64,000 bases of DNA from SAR324 cluster bacterium. Lineage in GTDB: Bacteria; SAR324; XYD2-FULL-50-16; HCM1. Each line of letters begins with the position of its first letter. Within the stretch, counting starts at the first letter, position 1. The notes beneath the pieces are model-generated. The model was given only the letters and a program-made list of their open reading frames with translations, was not told the DNA's origin and ran no database searches. Made by a program: the position numbers and the translations under genes. Location of the stretch: positions 1,356-65,355 of the forward strand of contig PUHO01000007.1 of NCBI GenBank assembly GCA_002995645.1, in the 5' to 3' direction. Below, one piece after another: positions 21,228 to 41,053 of the stretch.

Positions 21228-23033
21228 ATGAATAGATCATTAACAATAGAAAGGTTATCTAAACATAATAAACAGCAAATAATTAACTATTTACGTGCCA
21301 ATAAAAGTTATCAAGAAATAGCTGAGATATGCCATAAAACAGGAATGCCTTTAAAAGTAGGAGTCGCAGCGTTACGTAACTACGATACAAAATACAAAAT
21401 ATCTAAACAAGGTAAGGAACGAGCTAAGAAAATACAAGAAAATTTGACTAACGTAAAGCAAAAGCAACCGATAGAAGGTAACTTGCCTACATCGTTAAAA
21501 ATAGAAAAATTATCTAAACATAATAAACAGCAAATAATTAACTATTTACGTGCCAATAAAAGTTATCAAGAAATAGCTGAGATATGCCATAAAACAGGAA
21601 TGCCATTAAAAGTAGGAGTCGCAGCGTTACGTAATTACGATACAAAATACAAAATATCTAAACAAGGCAAGGAATGGGCTAAGAAAATAGAAGAGAATTT
21701 GCCCAAGGTAAAGCAAAAGCAACCGATAGAAGGGATTTATAGTAACTTGCCTACATCGTTAAAAATAGAAAAAATACCTAAACATGATAGGCAGCAAATA
21801 ATTAACTATTTACGTAACAATAAAAGTTATCAAGAAATAGCTGAGATATGCCATAAAACAGGAATGCCATTAAAAGTAGGAGTCGCAGCGTTACGTAACT
21901 ACGATACAAAATACAAAATATCTAAACACGGCAAGGAACGAGCTAAGCAAATAGAAGAAAATTTGCCCAAGGTAAAGCAAAAGCAACCTATAGAAGGTAA
22001 CTTGCCTACGTCGTTAAAAATAGAAAAATTATCTAAACATGATAGACAGAAAATAATTAACTATTTACGTGCCAATAAAAGTTATCAAGAAATAGCTGAG
22101 ATAGGCAATAAAGCAGGAATGCCTTTAAAAGTAGGGGTCGCAGCGTTACGTAACTACGATACAAAATACAAAATATCTAAGCAAGGCAAGGAACGGGCTA
22201 AGAAAATAGAAGAAAATTTGACTAACGTAAAGCAAAAGCAACCGATAGAAGGGATTTATAGTAACTTGCCTACGTCGTTAAAAATAGAAAAATTACCTAA
22301 ACATAATAAACAGCAAATAATTAACTATTTACGTACCAATAAAAGTTATCAAGAAATAGCTGAGAGATGCCATAAAACAGGAATGCCCTTAAAAGTAGGG
22401 GTCGCAGCGTTACGTAACTACGATACAAAATACAAAATATCTAAACGAGCTAAGCAAATAGAAGAAAATTTGCCCAAGGTAAAGCAAAAGCAACCTATAG
22501 AAGGGATTTATAGTAACTTGCCTACGTCGTTAAAAATAGAAAAATTACCTAAACATGATAGGCAGCAAATAATTAACTATTTACGTGCCAATAAAAATTA
22601 TCAAGAAATAGCTGAGATATGCCATAAAACAGGAATGCCATTAAAAGTAGGAGTCGCGGCGTTACGTAACTACGATACAAAATACAAAATATCTAAACAA
22701 GGCAAGGAACGAGCTAAGAAAATAGAAGAAAATAATCGTCTTTGCTTGCCCAAGGTAAAGCAAAAGCAACCTATAGAAGGGATTTATAGTAACTTGCATC
22801 TATCGTTAATACAATTGATTTCACAACTAGAGGCAAAAGTACAATCGCCAAAAAGCAAGAAAGATCAGTTAAACGAAGTCAACATTTTATATAAAGTATC
22901 GCAAATGTTAAAACTACTTTCTTCAAATCAAGAAATCATAGGAACCGCCACCTCGGAAGAGACAGAGCAAAAACGGAAAGTAAATAGTAAGCATTTAAGG
23001 AAAGCAATCACGTCTATATACGGGAAAATATAG
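21228..23033 (+). CDS. tandem-repeat protein in the small-terminase position: six ~86-aa HTH-like modules plus a unique C-terminal tail
   Basis: 601 aa. Module starts are at nt 21228, 21480, 21744, 21999, 22263 and 22515 (periods 252/264/255/264/252/276, all multiples of 3). The unique tail starts at 22791. Module consensus is NLPTSLKIEKLxKHxxQQIINYLRANKSYQEIAEICHKTGMPLKVGVAALRNYDTKYKISKQGKERAKKIEENLxxVKQKQPIEG. As I recall it, this resembles the N-terminal HTH of Mu gp27/DUF3486 small terminases (SKIDxLPxxxxxxIxxLLxxGxSxxEIxxxLxxxGxxVSxSALxRY). It lies directly upstream of terL. Confidence 0.6.
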   Translation: MNRSLTIERLSKHNKQQIINYLRANKSYQEIAEICHKTGMPLKVGVAALRNYDTKYKISKQGKERAKKIQENLTNVKQKQPIEGNLPTSLKIEKLSKHNKQQIINYLRANKSYQEIAEICHKTGMPLKVGVAALRNYDTKYKISKQGKEWAKKIEENLPKVKQKQPIEGIYSNLPTSLKIEKIPKHDRQQIINYLRNNKSYQEIAEICHKTGMPLKVGVAALRNYDTKYKISKHGKERAKQIEENLPKVKQKQPIEGNLPTSLKIEKLSKHDRQKIINYLRANKSYQEIAEIGNKAGMPLKVGVAALRNYDTKYKISKQGKERAKKIEENLTNVKQKQPIEGIYSNLPTSLKIEKLPKHNKQQIINYLRTNKSYQEIAERCHKTGMPLKVGVAALRNYDTKYKISKRAKQIEENLPKVKQKQPIEGIYSNLPTSLKIEKLPKHDRQQIINYLRANKNYQEIAEICHKTGMPLKVGVAALRNYDTKYKISKQGKERAKKIEENNRLCLPKVKQKQPIEGIYSNLHLSLIQLISQLEAKVQSPKSKKDQLNEVNILYKVSQMLKLLSSNQEIIGTATSEETEQKRKVNSKHLRKAITSIYGKI

Positions 23034-23058
23034 GAAAGAAAAAAATAAGGAGGAGCCT

Positions 23059-24354
23059 ATGAAGCCACTTTTACCATTATACGACTACCAAAAGAATTGG
23101 CTTACAGATAAAAGCCGTTTCAAAATCGGTATGTTTGCAAGGCAAACAGGCAAAACGTTTATAACAACACTAGAAATTGTCTTAGCCTGTTTGCAAGCAG
23201 AAATAGAAGGAAAAGCAACAAAATGGTTAATCATATCAAGGTCTTTACGGCAAGCAAAAGAGGCGATGCAAGACGTGTATCAACATGTGCAAGTAATGGA
23301 TACTTTTTATAAAGCCTATCAATGGCATATTCCAACAGGAGAAAAAAATATAATGGAGTGGCAACTTCCCCATGGAAGCCGTGTTATTGCTTTGCCTGCT
23401 AATGCAGATACAATCAGAGGCTATTCAAGTAACGTGTTGCTAGATGAATTTGCTTTTCACCAAGATCTAGCAAGTATCTGGTCGGCTGTTTTTCCTATTA
23501 TATCATCAGGTAAACGTATGCTTATTGTCTCTACGCCAAACGGAACGAATAATTATTTTTATGAAATAATGACAAATAAACAAAACCTGTGGAGCCGGCA
23601 TATTGTGGATATTTACCAAGCAAAGCAAGGCGGCTTGCCAAGAGATATTAAAGAAATGAAAAAGGCAGTGCTAGATTCGTACGTATGGCAACAAGAATAC
23701 GAATTGAAATGGCAACAAGAAGGGGAAAGCTGGATTGCAAAAGAATTGATTAAGTTAGTGCAAGATCCGCTTGCCGGCGTGCCTACGGCGTATGAAGGGA
23801 ACGAGTGTTTTATTGGCGTAGATATAGCGAGAAGGAACGATTTTTTTGTTATTGTTGTTTTAGAAAAATGCCAAGGCGTTTTGTGGTGTCGTGAGATTAT
23901 AGCAATGCAAAATACTTCTTTTCAAGAACAGGCAGATTTACTTTCAAATTGTATTTATAAATATAACGTTGTTAGTGTGTGTATGGATCAAACCGGCATG
24001 GGAGAAATGCCGGTGGAAGAAGCAAAAAAGAAGCATGGCAATATGATTCAAGGAATCCTAATGACACAAAAGAAAAAATACGATCTTGCCGTTATAGGAA
24101 AAATGCATTTTGAGCAAGAAACAAGCAAGCTACCGTGCGATAGGATTCTTGAAGAAGATATACAGTCTATTAGAAGGAAAGTAGCGTTAAACGGAGAGGT
24201 ACAACTTTATACAGAGCGAACAAAACAAGGGCACGGAGATAGAGCATGGGCGCTATTGTTAGCAACACAAGCAGCGTCGGGAAGGGAAGAAATCACATAT
24301 AATTATTATACTGTAGATTCGGGATCTCTATTTAATCAAAACAAATTTATGTAA
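23059..24354 (+). CDS. terminase large subunit (Mu gp28-like)
   Basis: 431 aa with a strong SD (AAGGAGG). It has Walker A-like ARQTGKTF, Walker B LLDEFAFH and a C-terminal nuclease-type HGDRAWAL motif. Confidence 0.88.
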   Translation: MKPLLPLYDYQKNWLTDKSRFKIGMFARQTGKTFITTLEIVLACLQAEIEGKATKWLIISRSLRQAKEAMQDVYQHVQVMDTFYKAYQWHIPTGEKNIMEWQLPHGSRVIALPANADTIRGYSSNVLLDEFAFHQDLASIWSAVFPIISSGKRMLIVSTPNGTNNYFYEIMTNKQNLWSRHIVDIYQAKQGGLPRDIKEMKKAVLDSYVWQQEYELKWQQEGESWIAKELIKLVQDPLAGVPTAYEGNECFIGVDIARRNDFFVIVVLEKCQGVLWCREIIAMQNTSFQEQADLLSNCIYKYNVVSVCMDQTGMGEMPVEEAKKKHGNMIQGILMTQKKKYDLAVIGKMHFEQETSKLPCDRILEEDIQSIRRKVALNGEVQLYTERTKQGHGDRAWALLLATQAASGREEITYNYYTVDSGSLFNQNKFM

Positions 24355-24696
24355 AAGAAACGTAGGCAACTTTATACAGAGCGAACAAAACAAGGGCACA
24401 GAGATAGAGCAAGGGCGCTATTGTTAGCAACACAAGCGGCGGCGGTAAGGGAAGAAATCACATATAATTATTATACTGTAGATTCGGGATCTCTATTTAA
24501 TCAAAACAAATTTATTTAAAAGAAACGTAGGCAACTTTATACAGAACGAACAAAACAAGGGCACGGAGATAGAGCATGGGCGCTATTGTTAGCAACACAA
24601 GCGGCGGCGGGAAGGGAAGAAATCACATATAATTACTATACTGTAGATTCGGGGTCTCTATTTAATCAAAACAAATTTATTTAAAAGAAACGTATG
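24202..24696 (+). repeat. exact-period 3 x 165-bp tandem triplication of the terL 3' end plus the terL-portal junction
   Basis: The units are 24202-24366, 24367-24531 and 24532-24696. Copies 2 and 3 still read QLYTERTKQGH(R/G)DRA(R/W)ALLLATQAAA..EEITYNYYTVDSGSLFNQNKFI-stop in the terL frame. The position of the portal ATG (24694) reads AGG in the two upstream copies. Confidence 0.95.
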
Positions 24697-25875
24697 CAAC
24701 CTATTTTTAAGAATAAACCGGTCATGGAACAAGAAATTTTTACAAATTGTATTGTAAAAAACAAACTAGAAGAATTGACCTGTACAAAGCAAAAATTAAC
24801 GCCAGCAAGATTAAAGCGTATTTTAGAAGAGTCAGACAGAGGCAATAACGAGCAAATGCTTGACCTTGCAAAAGAAATGGAAGAGCAAGAACCGCACTAT
24901 GCGGGCGTCTTAGCAGTACGCAAAAGAGCGATTACTTCCCTTCCTATGCGTATAGACAAAATAAACGAGTTCCCACAAGAAATGGGCGATTTACTTAAAC
25001 AAGTAATAAACGATCCTTGTTTTGGTCATATGTTAGAAGACGCACTAGACGCGCTAGGAAAAGGGTATAGTGTGATTGAAATTATATGGCAAAGAAAAAA
25101 AGGTTTTTGGATACCGAAAGAATACGTCTGGAAAGATCAAAAGCTATTTCAAATTGATATGAACAGTCGTAACAAAGTGTATTTTATAGGTAAAGAAAAA
25201 AAGCAGCTAATCCCGCAATATAAAGCTATTGTGCATTTACATAAATTGAAAAGCGAAGTGACTGCAAACGGCGGATTAGCAAGGTTAGTTTCGTTTAACT
25301 ATATGTGTAAAAACTTTACGCTACAAAGTTGGATGCGTTTTCTTGAACTATTTGGGCAACCGCTTAGGTTGGGAAAATATGCAAAAGGAGCAAAAGAACA
25401 AGATATAGCGGTGTTGAAAAAAGCAGTTTCCTATATAGGAAGCGATGCGGCGGCAGTAATACCGGAAAATATGCAAATTGAATTTGTCCAATCACTACGA
25501 AGTGGGAACGCAGAAATATTTGAAGATCTGGCAAGGTGGCTAGATGAACAAATATCAAAAGCCGTGTTAGGGCAAACCATGACCAGCGATAGCGGAAGCA
25601 GCTTTTCCCAAGCAAAAGTGCACAATGAAGTAAGGCAAGATATTTGTCGTGCTGACACAATGCATTTAGCAAGGACACTTAACAAAGACCTAATTAAAGC
25701 GATTGTAGATATTAATTTTGGAGAACAAACAATATATCCGCAATTTTGTTTTGCATTACCAACGAAAATAGACGCGCAAAGCGTGTTGGAAAGCGTTAAA
25801 ACGCTTATTCCACTAGGCTTGAACGTGGATCTTGATGCGGTTGCGAAAATGCTTAACATTCCTGTTAGTAAATAA
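24694..25875 (+). CDS. portal protein (Mu gp29-like, DUF935 type)
   Basis: 393 aa. LTPARLKRILEESDRGNNEQMLDLAKEMEEQEPHYAGVLAVRKRAI matches the conserved N-terminal DUF935 pattern as I recall it. It sits after terL. It is shorter than Mu gp29 (~510 aa). Confidence 0.8.
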   Translation: MQPIFKNKPVMEQEIFTNCIVKNKLEELTCTKQKLTPARLKRILEESDRGNNEQMLDLAKEMEEQEPHYAGVLAVRKRAITSLPMRIDKINEFPQEMGDLLKQVINDPCFGHMLEDALDALGKGYSVIEIIWQRKKGFWIPKEYVWKDQKLFQIDMNSRNKVYFIGKEKKQLIPQYKAIVHLHKLKSEVTANGGLARLVSFNYMCKNFTLQSWMRFLELFGQPLRLGKYAKGAKEQDIAVLKKAVSYIGSDAAAVIPENMQIEFVQSLRSGNAEIFEDLARWLDEQISKAVLGQTMTSDSGSSFSQAKVHNEVRQDICRADTMHLARTLNKDLIKAIVDINFGEQTIYPQFCFALPTKIDAQSVLESVKTLIPLGLNVDLDAVAKMLNIPVSK

Positions 25876-25893
25876 ATAAACCTAAGGAGGTAT

Positions 25894-26034
25894 ATGATAA
25901 TTATAATTATAGCATATTTAGTCATGTGTTGTTTGTATATTTGTAGCGGTTATATGGCATACAAAAACGGCAGCGTTTGGAATCTAAATAAATTTATCCG
26001 TTTCGTACGGCATTGGTTAACACATAGAAAATAG
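25894..26034 (+). CDS. small hydrophobic peptide (46 aa), not in the ORF track
   Basis: Own translation: MIIIIIAYLVMCCLYICSGYMAYKNGSVWNLNKFIRFVRHWLTHRK. A consensus SD AAGGAGG lies 5 nt upstream of the ATG. It has one TM segment followed by a basic tail, which is holin- or membrane-peptide-like. Confidence 0.45.
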   Translation: MIIIIIAYLVMCCLYICSGYMAYKNGSVWNLNKFIRFVRHWLTHRK

Positions 26035-26041
26035 GGGAATT

Positions 26042-26362
26042 ATGGAAGGACTATGGCAAGAATTACTACGTATACGTATAGGTTGGATAGTATACGGCAT
26101 GATTGGCGGCGTAATGGCTTTAATTGTGTTTATTACAAAAGCCGTTACAAATAACAAGAGAAAAGAAAGGAAAGAATTGGAAAAGTTTATACAAAAATTA
26201 GTGGTCCTAGAAAGGAAGCTCTACGGCTTACCAACAAAACAGGCAATGAACGGTTTATTTTCTCGTTTAGCCAGTTTAGAAGCGACTTTGAAAACACAAT
26301 CGCAAAATTTGGATATCATACAAAAGGGAATACTTAACTTAAGCTTAGAAAAAAGGGGGTAA
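26042..26362 (+). CDS. single-pass membrane protein with coiled-coil C-terminus
   Basis: 106 aa. It has a TM helix (GWIVYGMIGGVMALIVFITKAV) followed by charged helical sequence. The gene has an SD (AGGGGA). Confidence 0.5.
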   Translation: MEGLWQELLRIRIGWIVYGMIGGVMALIVFITKAVTNNKRKERKELEKFIQKLVVLERKLYGLPTKQAMNGLFSRLASLEATLKTQSQNLDIIQKGILNLSLEKRG

Positions 26363-26363
26363 A

Positions 26364-26552
26364 ATGGGAAGTGTAACAAACAAGAAAACAAGCAGAAGAA
26401 TACTATTAAAAGCACAAGAAGAATATAAGAAAAGAGGCGGTATTGTTAAAAAATTACCACCTTCACCGGAATGGAATCTAGAAAGGTCGTCTTACTATTC
26501 TTGGTTAGTGATCGCTAAAACAAGAATTGATTTAGCCGAGTTTGCCTATTAA
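26364..26552 (+). CDS. small basic hypothetical protein
   Basis: 62 aa with an SD (AAGGGGG). It is translationally coupled: its start lies 1 nt after the previous stop. Confidence 0.45.
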   Translation: MGSVTNKKTSRRILLKAQEEYKKRGGIVKKLPPSPEWNLERSSYYSWLVIAKTRIDLAEFAY

Positions 26553-26564
26553 GTAAAATCGCAA

Positions 26565-27299
26565 TTAAAGTAAGACTGTTTTACAAATCGCACGACCAAG
26601 AACTTGGAGTTGATCAAACGATTCTCTAGGGATAAAAATCTTTTCATATTCTTGGTTCGCACTGATTAAAGTAAGCCCGTCGCTACGAAGTTGCGTTGAT
26701 TTACAATAGATTCGATTGTCAAAGTATAGAATATAAATACAACCGTCTTCTAGGTTTTTATCTGCTGTGTTAATTAATACTTTATCCCCGGGGCTAAGTA
26801 TAGGCGACATAGAATTACCTTGAATAGTAATAACATGCGCCGACGCAGTATAGATCCCGAATTCTTCAAGAAAACGCCTAGGAACGGCAAGACGCTTTTC
26901 CGTTTCATCAGAAGCAAGGAAATTGCCGGTGCCGGCAGAAGCGTATACGTCGTCGCGAATAGTGATATACGCCATATCTTGCGTATTAGAAGAAGGAAGC
27001 AAGCCTTCGTCCGGCGGTTCGAGTGTTACCACGTCCATCATAGTGTCGTGATATTTCATAGAGGTTGATTCAAGGTAATCAAGACCGGTATATTCTTTTT
27101 CTTTAGCAGGGAGTTTGCCAGTAGCAAGCCATTGTAAAGAAACGTTAGCAACGTTGGCAATACGAACGGCTTTGTCAATAGACGGCATAGATCCGTGTAA
27201 GTATTTGTGTAATGTAGTAGAGGTTAAATTACATTCTTTTGCAAATTGACGTAAACTTTTGTCGCCAATAGCAATTTTTAATCTTTCAGAAAAACTCAT
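26565..27299 (-). CDS. CI/LexA-like repressor: N-terminal XRE-type HTH plus C-terminal S24 autopeptidase
   Basis: The HTH is SLRQFAKECNLTSTTLHKYLHG..PSIDKAVRIANVANVSLQWLATG. The S24 motifs are GNSMSP (Ser nucleophile) and YCKSTQL...L.SAN (Lys). The start is trimmed to the ATG at 27299 (MSFSERLK); the ORF-track start at 27308 is TTG. Confidence 0.85.
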   Translation of the reverse strand: MSFSERLKIAIGDKSLRQFAKECNLTSTTLHKYLHGSMPSIDKAVRIANVANVSLQWLATGKLPAKEKEYTGLDYLESTSMKYHDTMMDVVTLEPPDEGLLPSSNTQDMAYITIRDDVYASAGTGNFLASDETEKRLAVPRRFLEEFGIYTASAHVITIQGNSMSPILSPGDKVLINTADKNLEDGCIYILYFDNRIYCKSTQLRSDGLTLISANQEYEKIFIPRESFDQLQVLGRAICKTVLL

Positions 27300-27507
27300 A
27301 ATGAACAAAAAGAAGGAGGTCTATTAAATAAGGACTAGGTAACTCACGTTCGCGTTGGTACTAATAAAACGAAAATGAAGGCATGTAATTCTATGATTAG
27401 CAAAACTCTATTTTATATAGATCAAGAAGGATTGTAAAGGAAATATATAGGAACAAGAATAGACGCGGTTAGTATAAAAATTAAATTGTAAAAACAAAGA
27501 AAAGCAT

Positions 27508-27807
27508 ATGCAAAAAGAAGAAACGATTATAAACGTTATTATACGAGAATGGGGAGATTTGTCAAATTTCTTGCTATGGGCAGGGTATAAAGAAAACAAC
27601 AAGTATATTCTAGCTGATTTTATAGACACAAACAAAAACGCAAAAGGAAAAGTAAGTTGTTTAAAATGGGCAATTTGGCAAACTTTCAAAGGTGAAATGA
27701 AAGCAAAGAAAACAGCTTGCCCACCTGTTGCGAGCTATATGCTTCCTATGGCGGAAAGTTGGCAATATAAAGTGGAGCAATATTTATTACAAGAAAGCAA
27801 ACTATAA
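27508..27807 (+). CDS. hypothetical protein divergent from the repressor (Ner/Cro position)
   Basis: 99 aa. It is the first gene of the second + strand block and has no recognisable HTH. Confidence 0.4.
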   Translation: MQKEETIINVIIREWGDLSNFLLWAGYKENNKYILADFIDTNKNAKGKVSCLKWAIWQTFKGEMKAKKTACPPVASYMLPMAESWQYKVEQYLLQESKL

Positions 27808-27816
27808 AGGGGAAAA

Positions 27817-28443
27817 ATGGAAGAACAAGATAAACGCAATATATTAAACGAATATATGACGAACGGGCAAGGATACTTAATTCCAAAAGAACAGGTTTCT
27901 CAAATCGATCAACTAAGGGATCAATTAATAGAGGAACTCTTTACAAAAGCAAAGCAATATAAACAGACAATAGAAGAAATCAAACAAACAACATTAAAGG
28001 AAATAGAAAGCTTTTTGTTCTTATGTGCAGGCGAGTATAAAGTAAAACTAGGCGGGAAAAAAGGTAACGTTAGCTTAACTAGTTTTAACGGGTTAAAGCG
28101 AGTGCAAATTAAAACGCAAGCTAAAATTGCTTTTAATGAAGGTGCTAAGATGGCAAAAGAGCTTATAGACGAATGTATACAAGAATGGTCTTTTGGTGCG
28201 GATAGTAAAATAGTAGCTTTAATTGAACATGCCTTTCAAACAGATAAGCAAGGTAACATGAATATTACAAGAGTGCTGAGTTTGCGTAAGCTAGCTATAA
28301 AAGAAATCAAATGGCAAAAAGCAATGGAATTGTTAACAGACGCCATGCAGGTAATCGGTAGTAAAAAGTATATTAATTTTTACACAAGAGAAACGCACGA
28401 AGACGGCTGGGAAATAATGAATCTAGATTGGGCAAGAATATAG
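27817..28443 (+). CDS. DUF3164-family protein (Mu-like early/semi-essential region protein)
   Basis: 208 aa. GGKKGNVSLTSFNG..V......I.FNE....AKELIDECI.EW........ALIEHAF..DKQGN.N..RVLSLR.L.I....W..AM......M.V.GSKKYINFY.RE matches the DUF3164 consensus as I recall it. Confidence 0.75.
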   Translation: MEEQDKRNILNEYMTNGQGYLIPKEQVSQIDQLRDQLIEELFTKAKQYKQTIEEIKQTTLKEIESFLFLCAGEYKVKLGGKKGNVSLTSFNGLKRVQIKTQAKIAFNEGAKMAKELIDECIQEWSFGADSKIVALIEHAFQTDKQGNMNITRVLSLRKLAIKEIKWQKAMELLTDAMQVIGSKKYINFYTRETHEDGWEIMNLDWARI

Positions 28444-28462
28444 TCAAGTAAAAACAAAGGAT

Positions 28463-29302
28463 ATGAATATGAATCAAAAAGAAGCAACAAGACAAGTTAA
28501 AGAAATAATGTGGGTACAAATTCTACCAAAAGGTAAAGAAATACAAGGGAAAGACGGACGTACGTTTATTAACGAAGGAAGCGATAAACTAGCAAGTCAG
28601 TTTAATCAAGAAAAAAGAGAAATCCCCATTGATATAGCTCATGCCGGCGAAGTCTCTGATCTAGGCAAAGAACCGCCGGCTATTGGTTGGATTTGCAAAA
28701 TGGAAGCAAGAGAAGAAGAGCTTTGGGCACAAATACAATGGAGGAAAGAAGGCTTAGCACTCTTGCAAGACAAGCAATATAAATATATCTCGCCGGCGTT
28801 AGTTGTGAAAGACGGAAAGATTAAAGAAATAAGTAGTATTGGGATAACAAACCACCCTAATTTAATTATGAAGTCGCTTAACTCAAAAAGCAAAGACAAA
28901 CAAGACGTTTTATTTCTTGCAAAAGCAATGGAATTGCAGTTTGAGACAAAAGAAAAACAAAACGATCTAGAAATAGCATTGCAAAGAGCAAGAAAAGCGG
29001 AAACCGAACTGGAAGCATTCAAAGCAAAGGAGGAAACAAAAGTTATTGAAAATATGGTGGAAGACGCCATTGAAAAAGGAAAGATCTTACCTATTTCAAA
29101 AGCAATATATATGAATTTATGTAAAACAAAAGAAGGGCGAATCGAGTTTGAAGAAACAATTAAAAAAATGCCTTCTTTATATTTAGAACAAGAAATATTA
29201 ATTAAACAAGAAGAAAGCGACGTTGATTTTAACAAGCAAGAAAAAGATATGCTAGCTACGTTACAAATTTCAACAAAGCAAATAAAAGAACTAGGTAAGT
29301 AA
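28463..29302 (+). CDS. head maturation protease/scaffold (Mu gpI-like)
   Basis: 279 aa. W.QILPKG......GR.F......IPIDIAH......PPAIGWI..ME.R...LWAQIQW...G......K.YKYISPAL......I..I..IGITNHPNL fits the Mu-like prophage I protein family. The C-terminal half is coiled-coil and scaffold-like. Confidence 0.85.
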   Translation: MNMNQKEATRQVKEIMWVQILPKGKEIQGKDGRTFINEGSDKLASQFNQEKREIPIDIAHAGEVSDLGKEPPAIGWICKMEAREEELWAQIQWRKEGLALLQDKQYKYISPALVVKDGKIKEISSIGITNHPNLIMKSLNSKSKDKQDVLFLAKAMELQFETKEKQNDLEIALQRARKAETELEAFKAKEETKVIENMVEDAIEKGKILPISKAIYMNLCKTKEGRIEFEETIKKMPSLYLEQEILIKQEESDVDFNKQEKDMLATLQISTKQIKELGK

Positions 29303-29336
29303 ATAAGTATAAATACATAAGAAAGGAAATATCAAT

Positions 29337-30245: not shown

Positions 30246-30265
30246 TAAAAGCAAAAGGGAATCTA

Positions 30266-31498: not shown

Positions 31499-31508
31499 AA
31501 AGGAATAT

Positions 31509-32972: not shown

Positions 32973-32998
32973 ATTAAGCAAAGTAAAAAGGAAATAGT

Positions 32999-33361: not shown

Positions 33362-33404
33362 CATGAAAGGTTAACTTGCGCTAGTTCGTAAGTTAACTTA
33401 CACA

Positions 33405-33692
33405 ATGAAAGAAGGATATATAATGACAAAAACAATTAGCTTACAAGTACCTATTACTAAAGGGGAAAGAACTATTACAGAGATAAGTTTATGCGAACCA
33501 AAAGCAAAACATTTACTTTCTCTTGACGAAGTAAACGGAGAAATTGCCAGTGTGTTTGCCTTAACGGCGGCGTTAAGCGGAGAGAGTGAAGCGCTGTTGC
33601 AAGAGCTATCTATTATAGATTTTGAAACAATTAAACAAGAATTAGATAGCTTGCTTACAGTGGAAGACGATCTATTGGGGAAGTCCAAATAA
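33405..33692 (+). CDS. tail assembly chaperone (Mu gp41 / P2 gpE-like)
   Basis: 95 aa, acidic and small, directly after the tube gene. The start may be the ATG at 33423, which has a better SD (GAAGGA). Confidence 0.65.
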   Translation: MKEGYIMTKTISLQVPITKGERTITEISLCEPKAKHLLSLDEVNGEIASVFALTAALSGESEALLQELSIIDFETIKQELDSLLTVEDDLLGKSK

Positions 33693-33835
33693 CGCCGTAT
33701 GCAGTTGGTGAATTCATGGCGGATATTATGTTTATTTTTAAGGGCTTTGATTATATAAGTTTAAAAAATATGAAACTAGGGAATGTAATAGGTTGGTGGA
33801 AAAGAGGAAAGGAACGTATAGAGAGTGAGGAGTAG
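33680..33835 (+). CDS. putative -1 frameshift extension of the tail chaperone (E+E'/G-T type)
   Basis: The -1 frame is open from the TTG GGG AAG region at 33675-33683 to the TAG at 33833-33835. It reads ..EVQITPYAVGEFMADIMFIFKGFDYISLKNMKLGNVIGWWKRGKERIESEE. The G-run G GGG allows P-site re-pairing. This is not the canonical X XXY YYZ heptamer. Confidence 0.4.
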   Translation, partial: EVQITPYAVGEFMADIMFIFKGFDYISLKNMKLGNVIGWWKRGKERIESEE

Positions 33836-33908
33836 GGTAATCAGGGGGTAAGGGGTTATTGCGGGAAGTAAGTAATAAGGGTGGGACAATTTATATAAGA
33901 GTAAGAAA

Positions 33909-34829
33909 ATGAATAGATATGTATCAAGTAATTTGAATAGACTAAAAGAGAAAATACAGTTTTTGCAAAAGCAACAAGATAGGTTAACACAAAAAAATAA
34001 AACACAATTGAGTTTTATACAAAACAAAAAGAAACCACTTGCGATAAGCGGAGCAAGCAAACAGCAAGTACGTATATTTGACACAATGCAAAAAACGGCG
34101 AATAAAGAAAAAATCAAATATACCAATACGCTAGGAAAGCTAAAGAAAACACAAGACAACCGGCGTATAAGTAAAACAAACCGGCAAAGTGCCGTTACTA
34201 AACTCATAGGTAACGTGCAAAATAAAGAACAAAAATCATCTATTGTTTTACGTACTATGCCTTTTATAGGTATACAAACGAACCAAGAACAAAACGAAAA
34301 AGAACAACCGGAGAATCCCGTTGCTATAATCACTAAAGAGAGCCCTATTGTAACAAAGCAAAAAGCGCAAGTTATCCCTTCTTATTATATACGTAATGCC
34401 AACGTAAAAGCACGAGTTACGCAGCAAAAAGAAGGTAAAGTACAAAATACTTCTTTACATAAGATTATAAGCTTACAACCTAAGCAAGGAGAACAACGAA
34501 GTACGCGTTTTTTACAAACAAAATCTAAGCAAGCTTTGCCAACTAGAAACAAAGTTTCTTTTATAGATAACCTTGTTAGTAATCAAAAAACAAAAGCTAA
34601 TAGCAAACAAAACGAAGCGTATAAACCTAGTTTGTTCGCACAAGAAAAAAGTAGTTATTTTGTAAAACAAAACGAAAGAAAAGAAAAAGATTCAATGACT
34701 ATTCCACAAGAAATTATATTGAAAATAGAAACAGACGAAGGTATTAAAGCACATGTAAAACGTATTTCAGGGAAACAGGATAATATAGAAGTGCAAACAA
34801 AGCTTAATTGTGGGTATATATTTTCATAA
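33909..34829 (+). CDS. atypical short, basic, Q/K/N-rich protein in the tape-measure position
   Basis: 306 aa. It lies between the chaperone and the gp43-like gene, where the TMP normally sits. It has no hydrophobic or Gly-rich segments and is low in complexity (QKQQ, NKKK, KQK). Confidence 0.45.
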   Translation: MNRYVSSNLNRLKEKIQFLQKQQDRLTQKNKTQLSFIQNKKKPLAISGASKQQVRIFDTMQKTANKEKIKYTNTLGKLKKTQDNRRISKTNRQSAVTKLIGNVQNKEQKSSIVLRTMPFIGIQTNQEQNEKEQPENPVAIITKESPIVTKQKAQVIPSYYIRNANVKARVTQQKEGKVQNTSLHKIISLQPKQGEQRSTRFLQTKSKQALPTRNKVSFIDNLVSNQKTKANSKQNEAYKPSLFAQEKSSYFVKQNERKEKDSMTIPQEIILKIETDEGIKAHVKRISGKQDNIEVQTKLNCGYIFS

Positions 34830-34865
34830 AAGAAGAGCAGATACACAGGGAACAAAAGGAGGGAT

Positions 34866-36035
34866 ATGGAATTTAATAGCAGTGGTTTTCGCGCGTCTTA
34901 CAGAGGAGTGCGGTTTCTAGTTTCAAAACATACGGAAGTAATAGGAAGAAACATACAAGTAGCTAGCTACGTTGGAAGTGAAAACTTAACTAGTATGGAT
35001 TTAGGAAAGAAAGAAAAAAGATACAATATAGAAGCGTACGTTATAGGCGTTGATTATATAAAAGAGCGTGACGAGCTAAGAAAAGCATTAATGCAAAAAG
35101 GGGTTGGCATGTTAATTCATCCCTATCTAGGTGAAACAAGGGTACGAGTTGAGTCCGTTAGTTTAATAGAAAGCGCCAAAGAAGGGAGAATGTGTCGTTT
35201 TTCCATTACCTTTGTAGAAGCGGGAAAGAATAAAGATATTACTCTCTCTGGTTTCAAACAAATAGACAAGCAAGCAAACGAGGCAAGACAAGCTTCGGCT
35301 TTGCAATTTGCCAGTACTATTAAGTTATATAATCAATCAAAGCAGGTTGTTGATTCAGCGCAATCTCATATGCATGCGGCAACTGATTTTATGGAGCGAG
35401 TAGCAAATAAAGCAACAGTAGAATCAAGAAGAGTAAGCAATATAGCGAGCTCTATTGCTGATTTTAGAGGTGCGATTCATAAATTGCAACGTACGCCCTA
35501 TGAAGTGGCGTCTAGTTTTTTATCGCTTCATGCGGCAATTACTTCTTTGTTTACCACAGGGCAAGATAACAGCATCACCTCTTTAGAAACGCCGTTTTCT
35601 AGTTTCCTAGACGCCGAATCGTTTCATTTTGAAACTGATCAAAATAAACCGACTGAAAATGAAAACGGAAAGGTGATTACTTTACTTTTACAACAAGCGG
35701 CCGTTATATCTTGCGGTGAAATTATGTCTAAAATGAAAGTAATGAGTAAAAATAGTGCGGAATCCATTGAAAAACAATTTAATAATTTTGCTCAAAAAGT
35801 AAACACATCTAGCGAAGTAAGTAATTTTATTAGCTTAACTGATTTTCGCTTAAGTAGCATAGAAGCGTTACGTGCCGATTCGTCCGGTTTGCATATAGAA
35901 AAAAAATCGTTAGTAACAAACTATATTCCTAGTTTAGTGTTTTCTAAATTAAAACAAACAAAAGAAGCGGATATTTTATACCTTAATACACCGCAAAACC
36001 CTTTGTTTCTTAAAGGAGAAATAATTCATGTCTGA
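34866..36035 (+). CDS. DNA circulation protein (Mu gp43/N-like)
   Basis: 389 aa. The N-terminus FRASYRGVRFLV....E..GRN.....Y.GSE....DLG matches the DNA_circ_N motif (ASFRGVPF...GRR...HEYP...DLG). Confidence 0.8.
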   Translation: MEFNSSGFRASYRGVRFLVSKHTEVIGRNIQVASYVGSENLTSMDLGKKEKRYNIEAYVIGVDYIKERDELRKALMQKGVGMLIHPYLGETRVRVESVSLIESAKEGRMCRFSITFVEAGKNKDITLSGFKQIDKQANEARQASALQFASTIKLYNQSKQVVDSAQSHMHAATDFMERVANKATVESRRVSNIASSIADFRGAIHKLQRTPYEVASSFLSLHAAITSLFTTGQDNSITSLETPFSSFLDAESFHFETDQNKPTENENGKVITLLLQQAAVISCGEIMSKMKVMSKNSAESIEKQFNNFAQKVNTSSEVSNFISLTDFRLSSIEALRADSSGLHIEKKSLVTNYIPSLVFSKLKQTKEADILYLNTPQNPLFLKGEIIHV

Positions 36036-37002
36036 TATTATTTTAAAATGTGACGGCAAGGCTTTTGTTGGTTGGAAATATATTCACCTTGTTTGCACTA
36101 TGCAAGCTATTGCCTATTCGTTTTGTGTTGAAATGGATTTGAATAAAGATAATGCACCTTATTTTAATCAAATAAAAACCCATAGTTCTATTGAATTAAT
36201 AGGTATAGATAACGAAACTAAAGTAAAGCAAGTGCTTTTAACAGGCTATATTGACAAAATAAAACGTATTATTAGCCCGGAGGAATCAAGCGTTCAAATA
36301 CAAGGAAGAAGCAAAACAAGGGATTTAATAGATTGTGTGATTACAAAATCATTTGCCCAAAATCAAAGCTTAACAGCAGTAGCAAAAAGTATTTGCAACG
36401 ATTTTTCAATAGAGGTGACAAGTGATAATACAAGCGTATTAGAAGATAAACTGTGCTTCTCTTTGCAAACGCCTTTTTATATCTTAAATGAATTAGCAAA
36501 AAATCAAAATAAAGTTCTCTTAACCAATAATAAAGGTAATCTCTTAATACAAGATAAAGTTAGCAAAGAAGTACTTCCAACACCTTTAATAGAAGGAGAA
36601 AATATTATATTAGCCGAAATGGAAGAAAACGGAAGCAATCAGTTTTCTAGTTATAAAGTTAAAATAGAAGAACAAGCAAGCATAGAAGAACAAGATGAAA
36701 ACGTACCTTGTTTTAGACCGTATGAAATCCTTTCAGCTATACAAGAAAGCAAAGAAGTAAGTAAACAAATAGCTTTATTTGAAAAACGAAAACGAGCTTA
36801 CTTTAAAATAAAAGTCGTTATTCTTGGCTGGGAATATAGTCAAGGCAAGTTTTGGCAAGAAAACAAGCTTTGTGAAGTTAATTTGCCTAGTTTATTCACT
36901 AATAGCAAAACGCTATTAATTGAATCAGTTACTTTTAATTTGATTCATTTTGAGAAAACAACTGTGCTAACGTTAGTCAAACCGGAGACCTATCATGTTT
37001 GA
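36028..37002 (+). CDS. baseplate hub / tail protein (Mu gp44/P-like)
   Basis: 324 aa. Position after the gp43-like gene, the overlapping start and the N-terminal ..CDGKAFVGWKYI pattern support the call. Confidence 0.65.
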   Translation: MSDIILKCDGKAFVGWKYIHLVCTMQAIAYSFCVEMDLNKDNAPYFNQIKTHSSIELIGIDNETKVKQVLLTGYIDKIKRIISPEESSVQIQGRSKTRDLIDCVITKSFAQNQSLTAVAKSICNDFSIEVTSDNTSVLEDKLCFSLQTPFYILNELAKNQNKVLLTNNKGNLLIQDKVSKEVLPTPLIEGENIILAEMEENGSNQFSSYKVKIEEQASIEEQDENVPCFRPYEILSAIQESKEVSKQIALFEKRKRAYFKIKVVILGWEYSQGKFWQENKLCEVNLPSLFTNSKTLLIESVTFNLIHFEKTTVLTLVKPETYHV

Positions 37003-37501
37003 AAAAGATTTGATTACTGCCTTAAAGAGATGCGTTTTTTCTCTTATACTTAAAGGTAAAGCCAAGAGAATAGAACAAAAAGAAGTGCAAGTCCTTGTAT
37101 ATGATGAAGAGGTAAGAACACTTAAAAGGTTGGATAATTCATATGGCATACAAACAAAACCAAGTTTAAGCGATAAACTAAGTGTTATTGCTTTTTTTAA
37201 GAAAGGCATAGCCTCGCAAGGCGTGAGTCTAGCCATACAAGAAGAGAAGGTGCCTGATCTTGGATTAACAGAAGGGGAAGTAGCGGTATATAATCGCGCT
37301 GGCGTTAAGGTGATATTAAAGGCAAACGGCAAGCTAGAAGTGAGTAATAAAACTGCGAGTTTAGCAGAAATCCTAGATAGCTTTATTAGTCAAGTTATGC
37401 AAATACAAACAACAGGCAGCCCAGTCAATCATGCGCTTTCTCCAACAAGTATACAAGCTTTGCTACAAATACAAATCAAATTAAAATCGTTGTTAACATA
37501 A
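36995..37501 (+). CDS. baseplate spike/assembly protein (Mu gp45-like)
   Basis: 168 aa. ...YGIQTKP....L.VIAFF..G....GV.LAI......P.LGLTEGEVAVYN.AGVKVILKANGKLEV fits the Mu gp45 family. Confidence 0.75.
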   Translation: MFEKDLITALKRCVFSLILKGKAKRIEQKEVQVLVYDEEVRTLKRLDNSYGIQTKPSLSDKLSVIAFFKKGIASQGVSLAIQEEKVPDLGLTEGEVAVYNRAGVKVILKANGKLEVSNKTASLAEILDSFISQVMQIQTTGSPVNHALSPTSIQALLQIQIKLKSLLT

Positions 37502-37827
37502 TGAAAATAGAAGAGTATAAAAATCTAACTACCTTAATTAAAATCAGTTTAGATACGGAGTTAAACACATGGTGGGCAAATAGTAAGCTAGGTAGCGATA
37601 TAGTGGCTTTACTCAAAACGGGGAAGGTCAATAATACAACGTTATTAAAGTTGTATTCTAGTGCAAAAGAAGCGTTAAACTGGCTACTAGAAGACGAACT
37701 TGTTAAAGAAATGGATATTCTTATTGCACAAGATAAAGTGAATAAAAATAGAATTAATTTTAATATTAATATAGTTAAACCTGACGGGAACGACGATCGG
37801 ATTAACTACGTATATAATCTAAAATAG
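37501..37827 (+). CDS. baseplate protein (Mu gp46-like)
   Basis: 108 aa. The WWAN.KLGSDI..LLKTGK...T......AKEALNWLLED pattern fits the phage GP46 family. Confidence 0.7.
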   Translation: MKIEEYKNLTTLIKISLDTELNTWWANSKLGSDIVALLKTGKVNNTTLLKLYSSAKEALNWLLEDELVKEMDILIAQDKVNKNRINFNINIVKPDGNDDRINYVYNLK

Positions 37828-37835
37828 GAAGATAT

Positions 37836-38888
37836 ATGGCTTTTAAAAGACCTACACTAGAAGAATTAAAACACAGAATAAGAGGGGATATAAATTCGCG
37901 TTTGCAAGTAGGCAAGAATCTAGAAAGATATGATTTATTGTCTATTCTAGGCGAAGTGGAAGCAGGCGGGCAACATAGTTTATACGGTGCGCTTGCCTTT
38001 CTTTCAAGACAACTATTTATTGCCACAGCAGAAGGCGCCTATTTAGATAGATTACTATCATGGCGGGGCATTGTTCGAAGTGAAGCAACCGTAGCAAGAG
38101 GCAACGTAGAACTAACCGGCGTAAGTGGTAGTGTTATTCCTGAAAATACGGCGCTTTCCGGAGAAAACAGTATTTTATATAAAACAAATACGTTAGTACT
38201 TATCGGCGCGTCCGGTAAAACTACGGTGGAAGTTGTGGCAACACAAGCAGGAGATAAAGGAAACTTACCAAGTAAATCTAGTTTACATCTAGTTGTTAGC
38301 ATAGCCGGTGTGAAAGACGAGGCAATCGTATGTAAAGACGGATTACAAGGAGGAGAGGAAATAGAAAGTGATAATTCATATCGAATCAGAGCGGCAAAAG
38401 AGGTGAGTACTTCTTTATCAAGATACGGCAAAGACGGTGATTTTGCTTTTTGGGCAAAAGAAAGTAGTAACGGCATAGACAGAGCATGGGAAATACGCAA
38501 TGCAGATACGTACGGGACTTTACTTATCCAAGTGGCAAGAGGCAACGTGCAAGCAACAAGCTCTTCGATTCAAGAAGCGGAAAAATATATTTTAGATAGA
38601 GCGCCTATAGGTATACGATATAAAATAGAAACGCCACAAATCCAAACAGTGGATTTAAGCCTTTCAATCCAACCGGGAAGCCAACAATATCAAGATAAAG
38701 CAAGCGATGCTATTAGGTTATATTTTCAGCAAAAGGCAACGCCAAACAAGGTACTTCAGTTAAATGAAATACAAAAGGTAGTTGAATCAGTGCCGAACGT
38801 TTTTCACGTAGAAATTCATAAACCAACGCAAGATATCCCGTTTGATTTGCAAACCTTGCCGGTTATAGGAGCGATTACATATGTTTAA
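37836..38888 (+). CDS. baseplate J-like protein (Mu gp47-like)
   Basis: 350 aa. FKRPTLEELK.RIRGDI......HSLYGALAFLSRQLF..TAEGAYLDRL..WRGI.R..AT.ARG.VELTG..GS.IPE.T fits the Baseplate_J family. Confidence 0.85.
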   Translation: MAFKRPTLEELKHRIRGDINSRLQVGKNLERYDLLSILGEVEAGGQHSLYGALAFLSRQLFIATAEGAYLDRLLSWRGIVRSEATVARGNVELTGVSGSVIPENTALSGENSILYKTNTLVLIGASGKTTVEVVATQAGDKGNLPSKSSLHLVVSIAGVKDEAIVCKDGLQGGEEIESDNSYRIRAAKEVSTSLSRYGKDGDFAFWAKESSNGIDRAWEIRNADTYGTLLIQVARGNVQATSSSIQEAEKYILDRAPIGIRYKIETPQIQTVDLSLSIQPGSQQYQDKASDAIRLYFQQKATPNKVLQLNEIQKVVESVPNVFHVEIHKPTQDIPFDLQTLPVIGAITYV

Positions 38889-39438
38889 AAAATTTAGTGA
38901 AATAGAATATACTGCCGCTTTATTACAGCTACTTCCTATTGGCAAGATTTGGGAACAAGAAAAACAAACGCCGCAAGGAGACGTCTATGCTATCCTACGT
39001 GCTAGAGCTGCCGAGTATAAACGTTTTGACACTATGTTAGCTAAACTTTTTGAAGAATCTATCCCGTCAAAAGCAAACTTAATGATAGACGAATGGGAAA
39101 AGGAAGCTTCTTTGCCTATGACAAAAGATCAAATTAACGTTAGAAGATACCGCGTTATAGACGCCTTAAATCAAATGCATAACGTAACGCAAGAATCAAT
39201 GGCGCAAATAGCTAGCATTTTTAATTATTACGTAACCATTCAAAGAGTGAAAGGATTTAAATTAGCACAAACAGGTAAAATACGTAGTGGCGAACGAAAA
39301 TATACAACAAATTATTATTACTTTTTTTTGTTTATTACAAAAACACCTAATGCAAAACCAAATATAAAATATGAACAGTTAGTACGTAGTCAAATACTAA
39401 GTTGTTTTTCAATTAAATTTATTTACGAGGCAATATGA
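38881..39438 (+). CDS. baseplate/tail protein (Mu gp48-like, DUF2313 type)
   Basis: 185 aa. YTAALLQLLPIGKIW......AILRARAAE......L..LFEES.PS.A..MIDEWEKEASLP fits the DUF2313 pattern. Confidence 0.75.
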   Translation: MFKKFSEIEYTAALLQLLPIGKIWEQEKQTPQGDVYAILRARAAEYKRFDTMLAKLFEESIPSKANLMIDEWEKEASLPMTKDQINVRRYRVIDALNQMHNVTQESMAQIASIFNYYVTIQRVKGFKLAQTGKIRSGERKYTTNYYYFFLFITKTPNAKPNIKYEQLVRSQILSCFSIKFIYEAI

Positions 39439-40325
39439 CGTTATACCCTAATGATCCGCTAGATAGTGCAAATCAAAGAGTCGTAGGTCTAGAAAATGGC
39501 AAATTTACAGACGGCGATCCAGTCAAAGGCATTGCGCCAAGTATTATTCCGGCACAGTGGCAAAATTTATTAACTGATTTACTAGAAACGGCAATTTTAC
39601 AAGAAAACGGAAGCGTTAATAATACGGATATCCATCAACTAGCCAATGTTTTAACTAATATCCACAAGCTTATTCAAACAAATAAAACGAATATAGCTAC
39701 TAATAAATCAAACATAACGCAAGAAACCGCTAACCTGTTAACAACGTTAAACACAAAAATAAGCCAAGCAAACCAAAATTTGACTAATGAAATGGCGAAT
39801 GCGGCAACAAAAAGATCAACCTTACAAACAGATTTAACAAACCTGCTTAACCGTGCTAAAGCGGATTTAACTAGTCTTATTAACCAAGCTAGTAGCCGCG
39901 TTCCTGTTGGCACAATCTTGCAATATTACGGAAGAACGGCGCCAAGCGGTTTTTTGTTATGTGACGGTACGTCTTATTATAGATCTAGTTATAGCGAATT
40001 ATCGCATTTAATATCATCAGGTAGTTCAAGTGAATTTAAAGTTCCTGATTTACGTGATAGATTTGTACAAACTAAAACGCACGATATCGGCGTCCATGAA
40101 GACGGCAAGGTACCGTATAATCATAGTACGTTCGGTGAAATGTTTACTCGCGGCACCGTTACGGGAACAGGCAATTTTTCAGTAGTTAGAAACACGCATA
40201 CTTTTGATTTAAATAATTTAGGTCATGGTCAAGAATATGCTTTTAATACTTTATATTTTTCAATCGGAAGCGGAAATAAAGTATTGCCAGATAACATTGT
40301 GCTTAATGCTATTATTAAATACTAA
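39435..40325 (+). CDS. tail fibre protein with C-terminal phage tail-collar domain
   Basis: 296 aa. It has a central coiled-coil of N/T/L-rich heptads. The collar motif is VPVGTILQYYGRTAPSGFLLCDGTSYYRSSYSELSHLI.....EFKVPDLRDRF. Confidence 0.8.
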   Translation: MTLYPNDPLDSANQRVVGLENGKFTDGDPVKGIAPSIIPAQWQNLLTDLLETAILQENGSVNNTDIHQLANVLTNIHKLIQTNKTNIATNKSNITQETANLLTTLNTKISQANQNLTNEMANAATKRSTLQTDLTNLLNRAKADLTSLINQASSRVPVGTILQYYGRTAPSGFLLCDGTSYYRSSYSELSHLISSGSSSEFKVPDLRDRFVQTKTHDIGVHEDGKVPYNHSTFGEMFTRGTVTGTGNFSVVRNTHTFDLNNLGHGQEYAFNTLYFSIGSGNKVLPDNIVLNAIIKY

Positions 40326-40345
40326 ATTATTTTTCAAGAGGAACT

Positions 40346-41053
40346 ATGTTAGTATATCACTATGACAGAATAACAAAAGAATATAAAATAACAACGCAAG
40401 CCAACGTAGATCCCAAAATACCAAATAGGTATTTGCTCCCAGCCTGCGCAAGCTTTACTCCCATACCGGAAACAAAGGAAGGTTACGCCATTGTGTATAA
40501 TGAGACAAGTAAAACATGGGAGTATATAGAAGATTATAGAGGCAAAACAATATGGCAAGATTATCAAACTTCAAAAAAAATAATGAAAATAGGGAGTCTT
40601 CCGTTCGGTTGGAGTTTAACCCAGCCGGAAGCGCCAATATATATAAGTAAAAAAGAAAAAAGTAGGCAAATATCTTTTCAGACAAATCAAATATTATATA
40701 AAGGAGTGGTTATTCATATAAACAAAGTGGCAAGGAAGTTTATAGCAACAACTAAGTTTTTACAGCACCTTTGTATGATTGAACCGATAATGAAAGAAAC
40801 AGAAACAAAGCAGCTAGCGCACTATAACCCTAAAGCCGAAGTATCACCAACAACAGGAAGTTATACCTTACAAGACGACTGGTTTCAAGAATATGCTTTT
40901 TCTAGGAAAGAAGTAAGTTATATTAAAGATAAGATATATAGTTTTTGGCAAGCTTATAAAGCGGAGAAGTACCGTTGTTTACGAGCTATTGAGCTAGCGA
41001 AAAATAAGCAAGAAATAGATAACGTTACGTTTAACCAGAATTGTATAAACTAA
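40346..41053 (+). CDS. tail fibre assembly protein/chaperone
   Basis: 235 aa. The N-terminus ..YHYDRITKEY.......VDPKIPNRYLLPA.A...P.P....GYAIVYNE....WEYIEDYRGKTIW is typical of tail fibre assembly proteins. It is the last gene of the cluster. Confidence 0.7.
   Translation: MLVYHYDRITKEYKITTQANVDPKIPNRYLLPACASFTPIPETKEGYAIVYNETSKTWEYIEDYRGKTIWQDYQTSKKIMKIGSLPFGWSLTQPEAPIYISKKEKSRQISFQTNQILYKGVVIHINKVARKFIATTKFLQHLCMIEPIMKETETKQLAHYNPKAEVSPTTGSYTLQDDWFQEYAFSRKEVSYIKDKIYSFWQAYKAEKYRCLRAIELAKNKQEIDNVTFNQNCIN

Follow-up and report, generated by a model that had tools for sequence, protein, structure and literature searches.

A Mu-type head and tail gene cluster in a SAR324 bacterium chromosome, probably a defective and immobile transposable-phage derivative

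The window analysed here, 64,000 nucleotides of a SAR324 cluster bacterium (assembly GCA_002995645.1, contig PUHO01000007.1, positions 1,356 to 65,355), is bacterial chromosome of about 35% GC that carries a block of phage genes at 21228–41053. This block, referred to below as the element, is 94% coding, lies inside host DNA and is encoded on the plus strand throughout bar one gene. We consider it probable that the element arose from a Mu-type transposable phage by several deletions and at least one rearrangement and is now defective and immobile, a cryptic prophage that has decayed partway. Four pieces of the ancestor would remain: a packaging block, made up of an open reading frame (ORF) of helix-turn-helix (HTH) repeats, the large terminase TerL and a portal protein without its C-terminal pro-region; a stranded fragment of a lysis cassette, with a DUF2730 releasin and no endolysin; an immunity region, in which a putatively autocleavable S24 repressor faces a rightward promoter region; and a 13.5-kb rightward operon that runs from a 99-aa ORF through DUF3164, protease and capsid to the fibre chaperone. 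An earlier note on this DNA had recognised a Mu-family head, contractile tail and packaging set of about 20 kb, and the Pfam, PHROG and PDB searches by which we assigned the genes bear this out. The note had taken the locus for a domesticated particle system similar to a gene transfer agent (GTA); the several signs of damage described here point to a defective prophage rather than to a proven GTA.

The functions by which a transposable phage moves, activates its late genes and leaves the cell were looked for with tblastn over all 64 kb, using MuA, MuB, GemA, Mor, lysozyme, small terminase (TerS) of the gp27 type, F, G and tape-measure sequences of relatives as queries. MuA and MuB from three relatives gave no match at E<0.1, GemA and Mor of the nearest relative (L001) showed no similarity, and lysozyme, gp30 (F), gp31 (G), the tape measure and gp27-type TerS likewise gave no match; only TerL, portal and protease queries found partners in the window. 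Among the ORFs of the element, Pfam searches detected neither rve, DDE_2 or AAA_22 domains nor a Mor match, and no transposase, integrase, AAA+ or muralytic domain was seen in any of them. Thus, the absence of MuA/MuB, Mor, gp30, gp31, endolysin and integrase claimed in the earlier note holds for the window, and so does its view that this is not a viable transposable phage, MuA and MuB, late activators and endolysin being missing and no phage ends having been found. The element cannot replicate, transpose, propagate or lyse the cell on its own. Compared with any relative, at least four losses are needed (A and B; GemA and Mor; the portal 3′-end with F and G; endolysin), together with a tape measure that has been either shrunk or replaced.

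No right phage end is apparent either, since only 3 nt lie between the stop codons of the fibre-assembly gene and of the convergent host gene aroA, and no inverted or direct repeats joining the two borders were found. In these 3 nt, and in a repeat block after napF at the left, the host borders described in the earlier note were both seen. A 17-nt overlapping palindrome (41049–41072, core ACTACGTAGT) spans the point where the fibre-assembly gene and aroA converge, stop codons included.

The remains of the lysis functions are out of context. DUF2730, the family of the Mu gp25 releasin, has been reported solely from transposable phages and always at most five genes downstream of an endolysin gene (PMC9239132). 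The DUF2730 gene of the element (26042–26362, plus strand), which encodes an N-terminal transmembrane segment, is stranded: the window shows no similarity to lysozyme, and none of the ORFs of the cluster has a muralytic Pfam domain. Directly upstream of it, a candidate 46-aa ORF (25894–26034, plus strand, beginning MIIIIIAYLVMCCLYICSGY) has a hydrophobic N-terminus and an AAGGAGG Shine-Dalgarno (SD) sequence; from these sequence features only, it may be what is left of a membrane-protein gene of the lysis cassette.

The portal gene is damaged as well. The Mu-type portal (Portal_Mu; 24694–25875, plus strand) has 393 aa and is without the C-terminal extension of its relatives: all 46 IMG/VR relatives whose alignments reach its end run 106–149 aa further (median 116), and the extension ends in a conserved helical segment. 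Among 5.8 billion proteins, 116 of its 119 best homologues have 484–553 aa, and the three short ones are all located on contigs of 1–4 kb. Similarity to the portal gene of one relative (L084) stops at 25863, with none in the window past this position; the portal end therefore looks like a rearrangement breakpoint and not like a nonsense mutation. The segment lost here matches the final 124 residues of Mu gp29, a stretch that the Mu virion does not contain and that protease I is believed to cleave off (PMC11915804). Since it is the part that Mu removes on maturation, the mature part of the portal is complete; what is gone, judging from the alignments, is a universally conserved assembly-stage domain.

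Upstream of the portal gene, TerL (Terminase_6N and Terminase_6C; 23059–24354, plus strand) has visible Walker A, Walker B and nuclease Asp motifs and is 40% identical to the TerL of a Pelomicrobium prophage. Its 3′-end is repeated in three 165-bp tandem copies with 96% identity (24202–24700), which put 330 nt between TerL and the portal gene and leave the latter without an SD sequence. The good SD sequences mentioned in the earlier note are not general: an SD core of 4 nt or longer precedes only 16 of the 25 ORFs.

The first gene of the packaging block (21228–23033, plus strand) is a 601-aa ORF that consists of six tandem 255-bp copies, each an HTH-like unit of 84–92 aa, and an 80-aa helical tail. 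A sigma-70-like promoter, TTGACA-17-TATGAT, precedes it at 21163–21191 on the plus strand as a consensus match only. The ORF is a small terminase by position only. As a whole, it matches the TerS family phrog_426 with a summed repeat E of 4e-11, and a single unit gives marginal matches (phrog_426, E 0.013–0.05; HTH_38, E 0.056). No homologue was found among 1.84 billion representatives (apart from one spurious repeat protein) or in 165 Mu-like loci with 8,800 ORFs; the ORF has no likeness to the ORFs upstream of TerL in relatives and no gp27 (PF11985) match. An AlphaFold2 model of one unit plus the tail is all-helical at low confidence (predicted local distance difference test score 58), and a Foldseek search with it returned no fold match. 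The ‘aberrant TerS’ of the earlier note is thus a positional guess, with marginal single-unit matches (E 0.01–0.06) and no homologues.

Two tail genes are in question as well. The slot of the tape measure is held by a K/Q/N-rich orphan ORF of 306 aa (33909–34829, plus strand) for which no Pfam, PHROG or PDB match was found; it is less than half as long as the tape measures of relatives, although it retains coding-type frame statistics, and a tape-measure profile built from six relatives (608–894 aa) matches no frame of 33300–35000. In the gp37/terminator position stands a 202-aa ORF (30890–31498, plus strand) without a PDB sequence match, related solely to a 136-aa ORF of the nearest relative, so that a gp37 terminator is not identifiable. 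The complete Mu virion set, as determined by cryo-electron microscopy, consists of gp29 portal, gp34 capsid, gp36, gp37, gp39, gp40, gp42 tape measure and gp43–49 (PMC11915804). Measured against this set plus protease and chaperone, the Mu-type head and tail families of the element (Portal_Mu, Mu I, gpT, gp36, gp43–48) are incomplete: capsid, gp36, sheath, tube, gp43–48, fibre, protease and chaperone are present, whereas the portal is short and gp42 and gp37 are not recognisable. The statement that all structural ORFs are intact accordingly fails at the portal, at the tape-measure slot and at gp37.

Gene order indicates rearrangement in addition to loss. The genes do not stand in Mu order, as had been thought, because a 2.6-kb block parts TerL and portal from protease and capsid. 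After the portal gene it holds the small hydrophobic ORF, DUF2730, a 62-aa ORF, the repressor gene on the minus strand, the 99-aa ORF and DUF3164, and the genes at 26042–28443 are of lysis-region and early-region types. Among distant IMG/VR relatives we distinguish two layouts, ‘classical’ and ‘class B’. Classical phages have TerL-portal-F-G directly upstream of protease-capsid, in the Pelomicrobium and Thermomonas prophages in the order Mor-lys-...-gp27-TerL-portal-F-G-I-T. In class B, MuA, MuB and DUF3164 are followed directly by protease, capsid and tail, while the packaging arm TerS-TerL-portal-F-G is located on the opposite strand, left of the early region; members are L245+L111 (IMGVR_UViG_3300031084_000295) and L246+L105 (IMGVR_UViG_3300028327_000597), and this layout is unlike that of Mu and of the classical prophages examined. 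The closest head and tail relatives of the element are genuine transposable phages, with MuA (rve/Mu-transpos_C) and MuB (AAA_22) beside DUF3164. From repressor to DUF3164 the distance is 0.5 kb here and about 6 kb in relatives, where A and B lie between.

With class B phages (among them also Logan contig SRR30757737_276694) the element has in common the protease, capsid, gp36, sheath, tube, chaperone and gp43–48 families at 30–46% identity, the early-region gene DUF3164, the position of protease and capsid right after the early region and a packaging module left of the regulatory region; as class B shows this placement too, it is a trait of the lineage. Class B phages differ in having MuA, MuB, GemA/Mor, F, G, tape measures of 608–894 aa and portals of 510–540 aa, none of which the element has, in the opposite strand of their packaging arm, and in a size of 32–40 kb compared with about 20 kb. 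To the classical prophages of Pelomicrobium methylotrophicum and Thermomonas sp. S9 and to Mu itself the element is linked by TerL (40%), portal (37–41%), capsid (41–44%) and the DUF2730 family; unlike them, it has the block of releasin, repressor and DUF3164 in place of F and G and is devoid of a gp27-type TerS. TerL and portal of the window are closest to phages of classical order (44–48%), the portal reaching 31–36% with class B, while sheath, tube and chaperone are closest to class B (35–46%); capsid identity does not separate the two. DUF2730 is misplaced with respect to both layouts. These differing nearest relatives of packaging and tail genes, together with the misplaced releasin, mark the element as mosaic or rearranged. 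A simple inversion plus deletion starting from the class B layout was considered and rejected: in class B the small ORFs precede TerS instead of following the portal, and any releasin would, going by the gene order of Mu, be among them. By ancestry, as far as gene families tell, the element belongs with the Mu-like transposable phages, but it shows none of their functional hallmarks (transposase, ends, activators and lysis).

Erosion of the head proteins was assessed by a leave-one-out test on columns conserved in at least 85% of homologues, in which the retention of the window protein is compared with the median of its relatives. Retention was 0.67 for the capsid (relatives 0.94), 0.63 for the protease (0.97), 0.76 for the portal (0.94), 0.83 for TerL (0.97), 0.81 for the sheath (0.90) and 0.81 for DUF3164 (0.95); the host controls AroA and NapA gave 0.90 (0.96) and 0.88 (0.97). 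Capsid, protease and portal have the lowest retention in their families, TerL the lowest or nearly so, and sheath and DUF3164 fall within the family range. Relative to a regression on overall divergence, the capsid lies at z = –7.6, the protease at –3.3 and the portal at –3.8, in a test that is crude and confounded by long-branch effects, AT bias and extrapolation. The result points to head genes that have changed more than lineage effects alone explain.

The repressor (26565–27308, minus strand) is of the cI/LexA type, with an HTH and an S24 peptidase domain, a GNSM serine motif and an Ala-Gly pair; its true start is likely the ATG at 27299, and the gene caller's version differs at the start. 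A PDB sequence search with it gave no match. The SOS-type repressor of the earlier note is therefore real as an S24/cI repressor, and it is the sole regulator seen in the cluster. Between it and the rightward operon extends a divergent regulatory region (27309–27507), and promoter-like sites on the minus strand were noted at 27438–27410, 27514–27485 and 27565–27538. The operon comprises 19 tightly spaced or overlapping rightward ORFs, the first being the 99-aa ORF and the last the fibre-chaperone gene. As the transposase, MuB, GemA and Mor are missing, the repressor-controlled early region is now followed directly by the genes for head and tail. Upon DNA damage, RecA would stimulate self-cleavage of the repressor, and its inactivation would let the morphogenetic operon be read through from the early promoter, the middle and late activators being gone. 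Whether complete particles still form is doubtful on the gene content, because the portal is truncated, F and G are lost, the tape measure is unrecognisable and the head proteins show excess change at conserved positions.

The remaining genes of the element, all on the plus strand, follow one another closely. The 62-aa orphan ORF without matches lies at 26364–26552, and on the other side of the repressor the 99-aa orphan, in the position of Ner/Cro, at 27508–27807. They are followed by DUF3164, an early-region gene of Mu-like phages (27817–28443), the Mu I-type protease/scaffold (Mu-like_Pro; 28463–29302), the gpT major capsid protein (29337–30245), an 86-aa orphan ORF (30233–30493) at the same place as a small ORF after the capsid gene in relatives, and the gp36 head–tail adaptor (30490–30876). 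Beyond the 202-aa ORF come the tail sheath (31509–32972), the tail tube (32999–33361) and the tail assembly chaperone (33405–33692). An open –1 frame of 61 codons (33650–33835) overlaps the end of the chaperone gene, as one would expect if the conserved frameshifted form of the chaperone were made here; a canonical slippery heptamer was not seen at this overlap. Downstream of the tape-measure slot are a gp43-like tube initiator (DNA_circ_N; 34866–36035), the gp44/gpP baseplate hub (36028–37002), a gp45-like spike (36995–37501; Mu gp45, 9ki1_V, as sole match at E 0.011, with 18 relatives at the equal position), the gp46 wedge protein (37501–37827), gp47 or baseplate J (37836–38888), the gp48 wedge protein (38881–39438), a tail fibre with a collar domain (39435–40325) and the tail fibre assembly protein (40346–41053). 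For the orphan ORFs of 202, 306, 86, 99 and 62 aa, jackhmmer and phmmer found nothing among the 8,800 ORFs of Mu-like loci.

Host housekeeping genes border the cluster over 19 kb on one side and 23 kb on the other. To the left are genes of fucose utilisation, two tRNA-Met genes, modAB, moeA, mobA and the nap operon with napF last (19365–19895); to the right, aroA (41057–42343, minus strand) is followed by thrC, pgi, cvpA, a FlgT-like gene, thiF and lptF/G. An Rfam scan of the window revealed nothing beyond the two tRNA-Met genes. Between napF and the cluster, a CT-rich repeat block (19898–20996) contains 12 irregularly spaced copies of a motif of about 50 nt with the core GCCCGCAYTAR. This core has 11 exact matches in the window, all of them within the block, against 0.15 expected. 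The block may or may not belong to the element; lying just ahead of the six-HTH ORF, it might serve as a binding array for the protein encoded there, or else be an ordinary intergenic repeat. Other repeats are found away from the cluster: large tandem arrays occupy the intergenic DNA around the two tRNA-Met genes, which lie at 10360 and 11243 (9184–11084; about seven copies of 152–153 bp and 5.8 copies of 111 bp, 88–91% identical), a 334-bp sequence is present in two copies (95%) at 43720–44387, overlapping the start of thrC and the 3′-end of a neighbouring 385-aa ORF, and tandem repeats of 92, 108 and 208 bp occur at 60–61 kb (59954–61125). Tandem duplication seems, from these arrays, to be a genome-wide habit of the organism. 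The idea that the repeats upstream of the element, in the TerS-like ORF and at TerL represent a special adaptation is weakened by the comparable intergenic arrays at 9.2–11.1, 43.7–44.4 and 60.0–61.1 kb.

Both the host and its element stand apart from what has been sequenced. When about 15 billion sequences are clustered at 90% identity, each protein tried, whether from the host or from the element, stands as a singleton, and no close relative of either was found in any database searched. The best non-self identities are 43% for the capsid, 49% for the portal, 47% for AroA (GTDB species representatives of mixed phyla) and 67% for NapA, so that the nearest homologues of element proteins (43–49%) and of host proteins (47–67%) are all distant. 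The NapA matches bear mostly gammaproteobacterial names; by these and by its nap and FlgT genes, the host would probably be read as a deep branch of the gammaproteobacteria.

Several observations weigh against the view that the element is a decaying prophage. At a coding density of 94%, all its ORFs, about 20 of them, are open, with no pseudogene debris between them; every ORF has coding-type frame statistics; and the element matches the host in GC1/2/3 and codon usage (correlation of relative synonymous codon usage r 0.88, compared with 0.93 host to host). The six units of the 601-aa ORF differ with a pooled ratio of nonsynonymous to synonymous differences (pN/pS) of 0.33, corresponding to dN/dS of about 0.33, and by in-frame indels only (Fisher's test for the first two units, u1–u2, p = 4e-4); parts of the element, at least this ORF, have by this measure stayed under purifying selection. 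Part of the deficit at conserved sites is a long-branch and AT-bias effect, since the host proteins are outliers as well, and loss of the portal segment need not be lethal, since Mu removes it anyway. Finally, only non-structural and accessory genes have been lost, as would be expected if particle production were under selection. The kind of genes lost, the open and densely packed ORFs of host-like composition, the dN/dS of the repeat ORF and a portal that keeps exactly its mature part also favour a particle system domesticated in the manner of a GTA or of PBSX, in which an SOS-type switch would trigger headful packaging of chromosomal DNA in situ, possibly from the HTH-repeat ‘TerS’ and the 12-copy repeat, with lysis provided from elsewhere in the genome. 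A morphogenetic operon directly behind a repressor-controlled region fits this alternative too, and in known GTAs, likewise, lysis genes are found at loci of their own. We nevertheless regard it as possible but somewhat unlikely. There is no sign of conservation in any other genome, the proteins tested being all singletons; no tape measure, gp37, F, G or endolysin is recognisable in the 64 kb; the head proteins show their excess change at conserved positions; control lies with a phage-type repressor and not with host regulators; and the tandem repeats appear to be a genome-wide habit rather than a special adaptation. The step from intact genes to selection and on to a GTA-like locus, taken in the earlier note, does not carry, given a 3′-truncated portal, an unrecognisable tape measure, the loss of F, G and endolysin, a stranded releasin and eroded head proteins. 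Known GTAs (RcGTA, BaGTA, VSH-1) combine clade-wide vertical conservation and host-integrated regulation with the packaging of host DNA in undersized heads. The sole GTA trait found here is that head, tail and terminase genes form a cluster in the chromosome which contains no genes for replication or integration. The Mu head has T=7 symmetry (PMC11915804), and a gpT head of this kind would be expected to have room for more DNA than the 20 kb of the cluster; a capacity smaller than its own genes, a hallmark of GTAs, is therefore not indicated. No Mu-derived GTA was found in a literature search. A specific version, in which the six-HTH TerS-like protein reads the 12-copy repeat and an immobile, SOS-switched system of Mu descent packages by headful in situ, so that particles would contain the cluster and host DNA of the aroA–thrC side, appears unlikely to us.

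PBSX of Bacillus is a repressor-controlled, SOS-inducible, non-replicating remnant made up mainly of morphogenesis genes, and, as far as its genes tell, the element resembles it in being a repressor-controlled remnant of this kind. PBSX, however, still has lysis genes and an identifiable tape measure, is shared by strains as a conserved element and makes particles; here lysis enzymes are absent from the window and the tape measure is unrecognisable, and the two lineages are unrelated. Like R-type tailocins, the element combines genes for a contractile tail and baseplate with an SOS-type repressor that controls them. Tailocins differ in that capsid, portal, protease and terminase are present here, as the earlier note had rightly argued against this reading, and a lysis cassette is not; gene content rules out a tailocin and an integrase-type prophage alike. 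As a variant of the defective prophage, one may imagine two unrelated Mu-like remnants side by side, neither of them functional: a classical left one (the presumed TerS, TerL and the truncated portal) and a class B-like right one (repressor and DUF3164 through the fibres), joined by insertion and then trimmed by deletions. The nearest relatives of the two halves do differ, the end of the portal looks like a rearrangement junction rather than a point mutation, its relatives continuing beyond it, and the DUF2730 fragment is out of place with respect to both relative types. Mosaicism of packaging and head/tail modules is, however, common in intact phages, capsid identity does not discriminate the classes, and neither a second set of any gene nor internal phage ends were found; we judge this variant quite unlikely. 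Highly improbable, finally, is a functional phage or helper-dependent element whose missing functions lie outside the window, in the other 15.6 kb of the source contig or elsewhere, or come from a co-resident Mu-like helper. The gene searches covered 64 of the 79.6 kb of this contig, which leaves room for it, but housekeeping genes extend on both sides over the distances given above, transposable phages replicate as one unit between transposase-binding ends, of which none are seen here, and the portal and tape-measure defects lie in cis.

A defective prophage is a known kind of element, and if the cluster is only a decaying one, it matters little beyond annotation. A Mu-derived GTA would be new; if that alternative were true, the element would be the first Mu-descended GTA or lateral-transduction device, in a bacterial lineage without sequenced relatives. 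The opposite-strand packaging arm of the uncultured class B phages bears on the genome architecture of transposable phages and may be of wider interest. The element itself offers an example of how a transposable phage can be reduced to morphogenetic genes that come to be controlled directly by the immunity repressor, which is plausible as an initial stage on the way to a tailocin or a GTA.

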